The notes below the pieces were generated by a model. It was not told the origin of the DNA. It worked only from the letters and a program-made list of their open reading frames with translations, and did not search any database. A program made the position numbers and the translations under genes. This document shows, in pieces, positions 35,264 through 40,175 of a stretch of DNA of 40,175 bases. Numbering within the stretch: position 1 is the stretch's first letter; the number at the start of each line of letters is the position of its first letter. This stretch comes from Anaerolineae bacterium (GTDB lineage: Bacteria; Chloroflexota; Anaerolineae; B4-G1; DUEL01): NCBI GenBank assembly GCA_041082215.1, contig JBDOIF010000111.1:62001-102175 (forward strand), written 5' to 3'.

Positions 35264-35545
35264 ATGCCCAACCTTGTCCGTTTCATCGTTTGGATCACGG
35301 ATGACGGCGTTACGTCCCCGGCTGGTGTGTCGTTGGGCCGCATCGTCCAGGCCTTCAAATCCATCACCACTGTCGAATACACCCGGAGTGTCAGAGAACG
35401 CGGGTGGACGCCCTTCTCACGCCGTCTCTGGCAACGCAACTACTACGAACGGATCGTCCGCAACGAACGGGAACTGCGGGCCATTCGCCGCTACATACGT
35501 GCCAACCCGGACCGTTGGGCAGAAGATGGGGAATTCCGAAAATGA
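35264..35545 (+). pseudogene. C-terminal fragment of a REP-associated tyrosine transposase (RAYT, Y1 HUH family) with degenerate HUH motif
   Basis: MPNLVRFIV (vs MPNHxHxI), LGRIVQAFKSITT, LWQRNYYERIVRNEREL..IRRYIRANPDRW. The N-terminal half is absent. Confidence 0.8.
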
Positions 35546-38350: not shown

Positions 38351-39708
38351 ACACAGAAGCGACATCTCCCTGCGATGAGAAGGGGGCCCGGTGGCCGCTC
38401 CTGATCGCTCTGGCGATCGCGCTGGTGGCGATGGTGGCGATGGACCGGCCGCTGGCCCGAGGGGACGGGCTGGCCTACTTTATGTGGCTCGATTCCATCG
38501 CCGGCGATGGGGATATGGACCTGGGCAATCAGGCCCAGATGTTTGCCCCCATCAACGCCTATCAGGTCTACTGGAATGAGGAGACGGGCCACTGGGCGAC
38601 CGATTTCGCCTACGGGTCGGCGATCCTTCTGGCTCCCACCCACTGGCTGGCGCGGTGTTTGGAGAGGGCCGGCTGGCTGATGGCCAACCTGGACTACTTT
38701 CTTTCCCTGCAGGGCCGGCCTCTGCCCTACAGCCTGCTGGGGATGCTGGGGGTGAACCTCTACGGCCTGGGGAGCGTTGCCCTCGCCTATGCCTGTGCCC
38801 GATTCTACGTCCGCCCCTTGCCGGCGGCGGCCGCCGCTCTGCTGGTGTTCCTCGGCACGCCGATGCTTTATTACGCCACCGTCGAACCTTTTTACGTCCA
38901 CGTCCCCGCCGCTTTCCTCGCCGCGCTGGTCCTTTTCCTCCTGCTTTACTGGAAAGAACGGCGAGGCAGTCCTCTGCTGGTGCTGGCAGCGGGCCTGGCT
39001 GGCGGGCTGGCCACACTGGTCCGCTGGCAGATGGCCCTCCTGGTCTGGGGGCTGGCACTCTGGCTTCCCTTCCATCGGAAGTGGCGGGAGCTGGCTCTCT
39101 TCGGGCTGGGTTTCTGGGCCATCGCCTGGCACATCCTCTACACCTGGAACTGGATGTTTGGCCGGCCCCTCGTCGTCTCCGCCACCGAGAGCGGCTTTCT
39201 CCGGCTGCCGGTCCATCTTCCCCAGGTCCTCTTCTCCGACGAGCGGGGGCTGTTCGTCTGGTCGCCGGTGGCCCTGCTGGGGGCGTTCGGCTGGGTGGCG
39301 CTGGCCCGCCGTCGGGTGTGGGTGGCCGTCGGGCTGGCGGCCGCTTTCCTGCTGGAGGCCGTCATCAACGGCGGCGTCGCCGACTGGTGGGCCGGCTGGT
39401 CCTTCGGCGCCCGCCGGATGACAGAGCTCTACGCCCCCTTTGCCCTCGGGCTGGCCGTCCTCCTCGGCCGGGTCGGGGGCCGGCCGGTCCGGGCCGTCCT
39501 CTGGACGGTAGCTGTGGCCTGTGTCCTCTTCAGCCTGTTGCTCTTCCTTTCCCACCTCAATTTCATCAACACTGTGCTCGACCGGCCTCAGGGAGATCGG
39601 GCGACAGTGGAGGTCCGGTATCAACTGACCCAATCCAGCTTTGGCGTCACCTGGCAGGTGATCAGGGAGCACTACGGACCCTGGGCCTGGAGCCGCCCGG
39701 GGCCGTGA
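38347..39708 (+). CDS. Polytopic membrane protein, GT-C (GT39/PMT-like) glycosyltransferase
   Basis: DGLAYF..SIAGDGDMD first loop, many TM helices, RGLFVWSP, WWAGWSFGARRM; GTGA overlap with the upstream gene. Confidence 0.75.
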   Translation: MNTEATSPCDEKGARWPLLIALAIALVAMVAMDRPLARGDGLAYFMWLDSIAGDGDMDLGNQAQMFAPINAYQVYWNEETGHWATDFAYGSAILLAPTHWLARCLERAGWLMANLDYFLSLQGRPLPYSLLGMLGVNLYGLGSVALAYACARFYVRPLPAAAAALLVFLGTPMLYYATVEPFYVHVPAAFLAALVLFLLLYWKERRGSPLLVLAAGLAGGLATLVRWQMALLVWGLALWLPFHRKWRELALFGLGFWAIAWHILYTWNWMFGRPLVVSATESGFLRLPVHLPQVLFSDERGLFVWSPVALLGAFGWVALARRRVWVAVGLAAAFLLEAVINGGVADWWAGWSFGARRMTELYAPFALGLAVLLGRVGGRPVRAVLWTVAVACVLFSLLLFLSHLNFINTVLDRPQGDRATVEVRYQLTQSSFGVTWQVIREHYGPWAWSRPGP

Positions 39709-39712
39709 AAAG

Positions 39713-39782
39713 AACCACAGAGACACGGGGGGCACTGAAGGAGGTCGAGAGAAACGCCGTGTTCTCTGTGTCACCGCGGTGA
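39713..39782. repeat. Palindromic pair of the CACAGAG/CTCTGTG repeat family
   Basis: AACCACAGAGACACGGGGGGCAC ... GTGTTCTCTGTGTCACCGCGGTG. Confidence 0.6.
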
Positions 39783-39805
39783 GAACGGGATCAAGGAGAG
39801 AGGCT

Positions 39806-40175
39806 ATGCGGAAAGAAAGCTTGAGTCTGCGAGGTGTCTTTCCCGCGCTGGTGACCCCCTTCGACCCGAAGACGGAGGAGGTGGACGAGGAGGCGTTCCG
39901 GCGGCTGATCCGCCATGTCCTCCCCTATGTGGACGGAGTGGTCACCAGCGGCACGACGGGGGAGTTCCCCTATCTCACCCGTGAAGAGCAGCGCCGCCTG
40001 GTCGAGATCGCGCGGGAAGAAGTAGGGGCGCACGGCAGTGCGCCCAATGCAGGGGCGCACGGCGGTGCACCCAATGCAGGGGCGCACGGCAGTGCGCCCA
40101 ATGTAGGGGCGCACAGCAGTGCGCCCAATGCATGGGCGCACGGCAGTGCGCCCCTGGTCATCGCCGGATGCGGGG
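39806..40175 (+). CDS. Dihydrodipicolinate synthase (DapA/NanA) family protein, 5' part, with in-frame REP-derived insertion
   Basis: Not in the ORF track because it runs off the end. MRKESLSLRGVFPALVTPFD...VDEEAFRRLI..GVVTSGTTGEFPYLTREEQRRLVEIAREEV-[repeat]-LVIAGCG; AAGGAG RBS. Confidence 0.9.
   Translation, partial: MRKESLSLRGVFPALVTPFDPKTEEVDEEAFRRLIRHVLPYVDGVVTSGTTGEFPYLTREEQRRLVEIAREEVGAHGSAPNAGAHGGAPNAGAHGSAPNVGAHSSAPNAWAHGSAPLVIAGCG
40022..40155 (+). repeat. Five tandem 27-bp GTAG-type REP palindromes inside the DapA-family ORF
   Basis: Units start at 40022, 40049, 40076, 40103 and 40130. Consensus GYAGGGGCGCACGGCAGTGCGCCCAAT; each folds GGGCGCAC/GTGCGCCC. Confidence 0.92.

Follow-up and report, generated by a model that had tools for sequence, protein, structure and literature searches.

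Palindromic repeats that are translated in frame within working proteins have been described in several bacteria, and an in-gene REP array taken alone is already of a known kind (Di Nocera, De Gregorio & Rocco 2013, PMC3733652). That survey describes GTAG-footed hairpins held in frame within genes, as at the locus presented here, with in-gene clusters of 43-82 aa in Thauera and R. conorii. It names UvrA as one target, notes that two Xanthomonas species carry different REPs at roughly one site of recB, and includes Chloroflexi among the bacteria with GTAG repeats. The Rickettsia palindromic elements (RPE; Ogata et al. 2000, as cited in PMC3733652 and PMC3184786) are likewise palindromic DNA translated in frame in working proteins. 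According to the same sources, however, RPE-1 is a longer single element of up to ~146 bp and the short Rickettsia repeats belong to the CGTC class, whereas the repeat considered here is a 24-nt GTAG hairpin, arranged in tandem, in a genome with RAYT genes. A third close relative is the group of 'double-foot' REPs of TnpA-REP subclass 2.4 (Quentin et al. 2018, PMC6006769), which pair a GT[AG]G foot with a complementary 3' foot and can lie in frame within the RAYT gene itself, in the interval between the HuH and Tyr motifs. The subject is treated further by Delihas 2011 (PMC3184786) and Bertels & Rainey 2011 (PMC3116915). The accessible sections of PMC3733652 neither set empty alleles against filled ones nor test recurrence on a tree, and they follow no copy-number series within a species; a term search of four of its supplements returned no entry for DapA, GatA or ThrC. 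Beyond the recB remark, a literature search that left most subscription papers outside its reach found no report of recurrent REP filling of one codon site with empty-site controls. What is added here is a site that has been filled recurrently, with empty alleles to match and a copy number that is still changing.

The window analysed is a stretch of 40,175 nt from an Anaerolineae bacterium (GCA_041082215.1, contig JBDOIF010000111.1, positions 62,001-102,175, forward strand). Its last ORF (39806..40175, + strand) is the 5' part, 123 codons long, of a gene in which a DapA-family aldolase is joined with a Fae-like domain; the ORF runs off the contig end. Within this ORF an array of five GTAG-type hairpins of 27 nt (40022..40155, +) is read in frame, standing in place of the native V-G-D/E-K codons and limited 3' by the CT of the following Leu codon. 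Each unit consists of a foot, an 8-bp stem and a 4-nt loop. Unit 1 (40022..40048, VGAHGSAPN) has a GTAG foot and a perfect stem; unit 2 (40049..40075, AGAHGGAPN) has a GCAG foot and a single stem change; unit 3 (40076..40102, AGAHGSAPN) again has a GCAG foot; unit 4 (40103..40129, VGAHSSAPN) has a GTAG foot and an altered loop, with G at 40115 in other contigs from the same runs; and unit 5 (40130..40155, AWAHGSAP) has a GCAT foot and runs into the native L-V-I-A-G strand. All five lie on the + strand, and the feet comprise two GTAG, two GCAG and one GCAT. Tandem Repeats Finder (TRF) returns a period of 27, 4.8 copies and a score of 225, and the array strand folds as DNA at -67.4 kcal/mol (z = -10.2 against 200 shuffles). 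The original prediction, made from the letters of the window, described five stop-free in-frame units with this translation and classed them as GTAG REPs. Reading the ORF confirms the former, and the units agree with the definition of a GTAG REP (an unpaired 5' GTAG/GYRG foot and a short GC-rich stem-loop, 20-40 nt) in foot, stem and loop. The proposed loop of ~44 aa is indeed an insertion, its size now corrected to a net gain of 40 aa, and the GRVP-type native loop gives way in the orthologue alignment to a local empty loop of V-G-(D/E)-K-(L/R/K/P)-V. A separate hairpin just 5' of the gene (39716-39772) is a member of a second family of dispersed repeats, which has 64 strand-hits at ≤2 mismatches.

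The gene continues on a second contig, C128 (locus L001:2-1339), where the frame stays open past the Tyr133 and Lys161 motifs and the Fae-like domain to a stop; the Schiff-base Lys expected beyond the window is found there. A pseudogene was considered and ruled out on this open frame and on a dN/dS of ~0.1 (0.10-0.13 pairwise with four relatives; 0.06-0.10 for other pairs of the family). Whole orthologues were matched in 36 of 60 relatives, and most homologues whose source is named come from Anaerolineae, Chloroflexota. The original prediction of a DapA-family enzyme stands as to the family. Like dihydrodipicolinate synthase (DHDPS; DapA, TIGR00674), the protein has the barrel fold and retains the equivalents of Thr44/Thr45, Tyr133 and Lys161, residues whose roles, with those of Tyr107 and Arg138, are taken from PMC3188589. 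It departs from DHDPS in several respects: the Tyr107 position is invariably Phe, at least 90% of 71 sequences have Val in place of Arg138, the C terminus carries a Fae-like domain, a paralogue lies in tandem, and no DapB_N match above cut-off was found in a genome that is 96% complete. Tyr107 is presumably the second Tyr of the TPYY motif. The enzyme is a DapA-family Schiff-base aldolase with a Fae-like domain and, because the Tyr107 and Arg138 equivalents are absent, probably not the lysine-pathway DapA; it should not be called 'essential' or 'lysine-biosynthetic'. Against TIGR00674 the split gene scores below cut-off and the whole orthologue in G001 just above it (207.9 vs 206.15), and the Fae-like domain scores 109.6 bits, the cut-off for Fae being 118. 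The two DapA-like/Fae-like fusion genes lie in tandem (L001:2-1339 and L001:1363-2835), are ~40% identical and are conserved in two Anaerolineae families. No paper on a DapA-Fae fusion was found, most subscription papers being outside the search.

The end of the window is the end of its contig, C78. C128 starts with no fewer than five units, alike in type but different in sequence, and has only the last 30 nt in common with C78. As the assembled genome contains a single N-terminal and a single C-terminal piece of the DapA-like gene, along with one whole paralogue next to it, and the orthologues examined join both halves in one frame, C78 and C128 represent two versions of one locus. An arrangement of their units in series as one long array was rejected, since an identical unique flank ends both versions. 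Runs X2 and X5 contain a third array end, and at least three different ends occur among the hot-spring runs. Neither a read nor a contig bridging the whole array was found in the runs compared; with the array unbridged and two versions assembled, five units is the count for this assembled path only and does not fix the copy number per cell. A metagenome pattern scan for the filled left junction identified one locus. RNA run X7 yielded one contig of 191 nt (L001:449-639, depth 2.4), which lies outside the array junctions and may be DNA carry-over, and so is not evidence of expression.

Comparison with relatives shows that the loop is usually empty. The plain form V-G-(D/E)-K-(L/R/K)-V, or a close variant, is present at 26 of the 29 genome loci examined. 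From 120 database homologues 118 were parsed, 98 with the standard loop and 20 with a longer one; of the latter three are REP-like and 17 not recognisably REP, as assessed at the peptide level only. Among GTDB loci (77 of 80 parsed) three are filled, with the same loop peptides as the filled genome loci, and are therefore not independent of the 29. Another recurring insert, ending in S-T-E-L-A-E-V or similar, occupies the same loop in P0060, P0064, P0079 and P0090, and possibly derives from another repeat family. In G011 one unit of the window's subtype is present, while its congeners G013 and G001 are empty; the hairpin takes the place of their D/E-K codons between a shared GTRGGG and the Leu codon, with 17 nt replacing 5, a net gain of 12 nt and no duplication. 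In G003 a REP of another subtype replaces five codons from foot to foot, and this unit occurs 20 times in the G003 genome, including this copy. G002 carries an eroded insert of 6 aa, in which the peptide length is retained and the palindrome decayed; G002 and G003 are sisters (support 100/97). In a tree of 26 rows built from residues C-terminal to the loop, following an earlier quick tree, the six REP-type alleles, of which P0002 and P0011 are REP-like by peptide only and that of G002 is eroded, require five changes. A single clade of these alleles is rejected with a p-AU of 0.0014, a value weakened by the choice of the group after the first tree had been seen. The suggestion that the palindrome had been recruited as a loop finds no support here, given that 98 of the 118 scored orthologues have no insert, that the insert sequence differs between lineages, and that the 27-nt period also occurs outside genes.

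Once present, the inserts vary in whole units. The G003-type allele has two, three or four copies of a 24-nt unit in proteins that are otherwise identical or nearly so, and an alignment of L064 with L018 shows one 48-nt gap and no mismatches elsewhere over 2.9 kb. P0011 and P0144 have one and two units, respectively, with a period of 9 aa. Together with the several array ends in the runs, these series corroborate the tandem amplification and variable length proposed originally. A period of 27 nt is the commonest among REP arrays in the window's genome, both within and outside genes. Array periods are divisible by 3 in 7/7 cases in genes and 12/18 outside, a comparison in which the classes were set by hand, two non-REP rows were dropped and the halves of the DapA-like gene were counted apart; at p = 0.14 the difference falls short of significance, and selection for frame acting on the array period was not retained as an explanation.

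The position of the insert in a helix-to-strand loop, as originally proposed, is supported by a structural model, the loop being that between helix 2 and strand 3. Since the window gene is split over two contigs, a relative with four units (P0129) was modeled: the mean pLDDT is 82 and the barrel is kept, with values below 50 for residues 79-106, between the helix at 59-78 and the strand at 111-117. In such barrels the helix-to-strand loops are on the face away from catalysis. The 120 homologues have 18 internal insertions of at least 3 aa, and 16 of these are in this loop. The same loop of the adjacent paralogue is insert-free in 24/24 genomes, so general loop tolerance is not the whole story. 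In this frame a REP begins with V-G and ends with P-L, resembling the residues replaced, and its 3' junction is CT, the site cut by TnpA-REP in vitro (PMC8266576). The same junction is expected from filtering at the protein level and from targeting at the DNA level, and these data do not separate the two.

The DapA-like gene is not singular, as similar in-frame arrays are found in GatA, PriA, ThrC and a RAYT gene. GatA, a core gene and a stronger case, holds six 27-nt REP units in frame, or ~54 aa (C45:29316-29477, L065). An array scan of the window's genome (G000) also detected three in-frame 27-nt units in PriA, an array of 24-nt period in a ThrC-like gene and one of 15-nt period in an unnamed gene, and single in-frame REPs were found in UvrA and NAD kinase. 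In relatives, the GatA loop has a GTAG-headed hairpin in 4/14, with several more apparently eroded and other REPs in the same loop; the ThrC loop has a REP in 3 of 20 parsed (23 matched); and the UvrA loop is filled in 2/24, one of them eroded, and empty in 22/24. More single in-frame REPs were seen in large genes at C52:2286, C90:577, C154:4379, C66:52664-53676, C65:27117 and C7:121718-121846.

A search of the genome with a generic pattern for GTAG hairpins yields 112 strand-hits, compared with 8-10 in three shuffles. With a looser pattern and our own rough gene calls, 60 of 102 REP clusters are intergenic or lie over a gene end and 42 are inside called genes, some of them by chance. A count of genome-wide copies of the unit, inside and outside ORFs, had been proposed with the original prediction: the wider GTAG family proves abundant, including outside genes, but the exact window unit has no second copy in the assembled genome, where the nearest sequence has two mismatches and there are 11 strand-hits at ≤4 mismatches. 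Further copies of this subtype may be hidden, since the assembly breaks at REP arrays. In G003, with 24 strand-hits, it forms a dispersed family, and G011 holds one further copy.

The same genome contains several RAYT genes. One, on C135, exceeds the NF047646 cut-off and has inverted GTAG hairpins on its flanks. A second, split by the assembly between C95:139722-140208 and the end of C141, carries a 27-nt array in frame, placed between the HUH and Tyr motifs, with ~11 units on C95 and ~9 on C141 in stretches that may overlap. A partial RAYT on C22 has an in-frame REP in the same interval. In the window, a 5'-truncated RAYT (TnpA-REP) remnant (35264..35545, +) lies 4.3 kb upstream of the array gene; at its position G011 has a whole RAYT carrying its own in-frame REP (L227:1533-2108, reversed strand), and only pieces were matched in G001 and G013. 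The neighbours of the remnant are putatively, by reading of the sequence, a glycoside-hydrolase-like gene and a DNA methyltransferase-like gene. None of the RAYT genes found is flanked by the window's REP subtype, their REPs having other stems. The in-frame REPs of C95/C141, C22 and G011 lie in the HuH-Tyr interval, as in subclass 2.4 (PMC6006769), and assignment to this subclass is by these features, not by a tree with the sequences of that study. The window array differs from that subclass in its place within a metabolic enzyme and in units that lack the full CTAC foot.

Our analysis suggests that a RAYT placed a GTAG REP in the loop joining helix 2 to strand 3 in an otherwise intact DapA-like/Fae gene, and that the REP grew in 27-nt steps and persists as a tolerated, disordered surface loop with no function of its own; we regard this account as probable. 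Relatives differ at this spot: some have no copy, some one and others several, of different repeats within the same family. The loop is therefore likely a landing site where selfish DNA is tolerated, and the insert is unlikely to be a useful new protein part. The comparison of alleles shows that the REP first replaced the native V-G-D/E-K(-L) codons without target duplication, one unit adding a net 12 nt. The joint was probably made by the RAYT (TnpA-REP) transposase, to which the CT at the 3' junction and the RAYT genes in the genome point. Units would then have been copied head to tail, presumably by slippage or unequal recombination, with the frame kept because the repeat is 27 nt long (24 nt in another lineage). 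Selection would act as a filter only. Repeated filling of the site by different REP subtypes would follow from a loop that takes nearly all insertions in the family and from a REP that reads V-G...P-L like the residues it replaces. A tentative extension, possible yet well short of probable, is that REPs overwrite look-alike sites: the RAYT would join the 3' end at CT, homology in GTRGGG would fix the 5' end, and Val-Gly...(Pro)-Leu loops would be preferred targets.

Other readings of the locus carry less weight. That a single old REP entered the loop once, and was later overwritten by each lineage's current REP, exchanged between species by recombination, or lost, seems unlikely to us, though several observations agree with it: the eroded allele of G002 and the fresh, genome-typical REP of its sister G003, separated by a dS of 0.39, are consistent with replacement; the 9-aa period and the A-P-N linker are common to P0144 and the window array; and the ThrC alleles of G000, G001, G013 and G009 have similar flanks and different stems. 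The empty alleles near G011 and in the clade beside G000 argue otherwise, because they retain the family-wide ancestral V-G-D/E-K, and several exact restorations would be needed. The within-species length variation, the strong hairpins and the convergence of several lineages on one site could instead be taken to mean that the array is a selected tunable element, in which loop length or mRNA hairpins adjust activity, assembly or expression. We find this quite improbable: most orthologues lack the insert, the inserts are alike only at the REP ends, G002 has lost the palindrome at unchanged peptide length, and unrelated genes, as well as DNA outside genes, hold the same arrays.

Compared with these, the notion that assembly produced the five-unit array, by collapsing or chimerically joining a repeat where the contig ends, is very improbable. 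The contig does break here, the unit sequence does differ between C78 and C128, and in run X1 the depth drops from 17-18 on the flanks to 3.9 at the window's 3' end (5.1 at the C128 3' end). Against this, run X1, possibly the source sample, has independently assembled contigs that match 39400-40053, 40029-40103 and 40074-40175 with zero differences, related units are present at the junction in other runs, and fully assembled arrays occupy this site in other species. The doubt is limited to the exact number and order of units.

The mechanisms by which REPs are disseminated to new sites are poorly understood (PMC8266576), and coding DNA offers empty and filled alleles that can be aligned cleanly. 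In these alleles REPs replace target sequence without duplicating it, different REP subtypes reuse the same codons, and growth follows in whole units; the alleles constitute defined substrates for in vitro work on RAYTs. Should overwriting of look-alike sites be correct, the DapA-Fae, GatA, ThrC and UvrA allele pairs would record the integration step of REP spread. Such arrays also interrupt genes in metagenome assemblies, as happened here to the DapA-like gene and to a RAYT gene. Overall, they highlight a route by which selfish DNA can add 4 to 50 or more residues to conserved enzymes.
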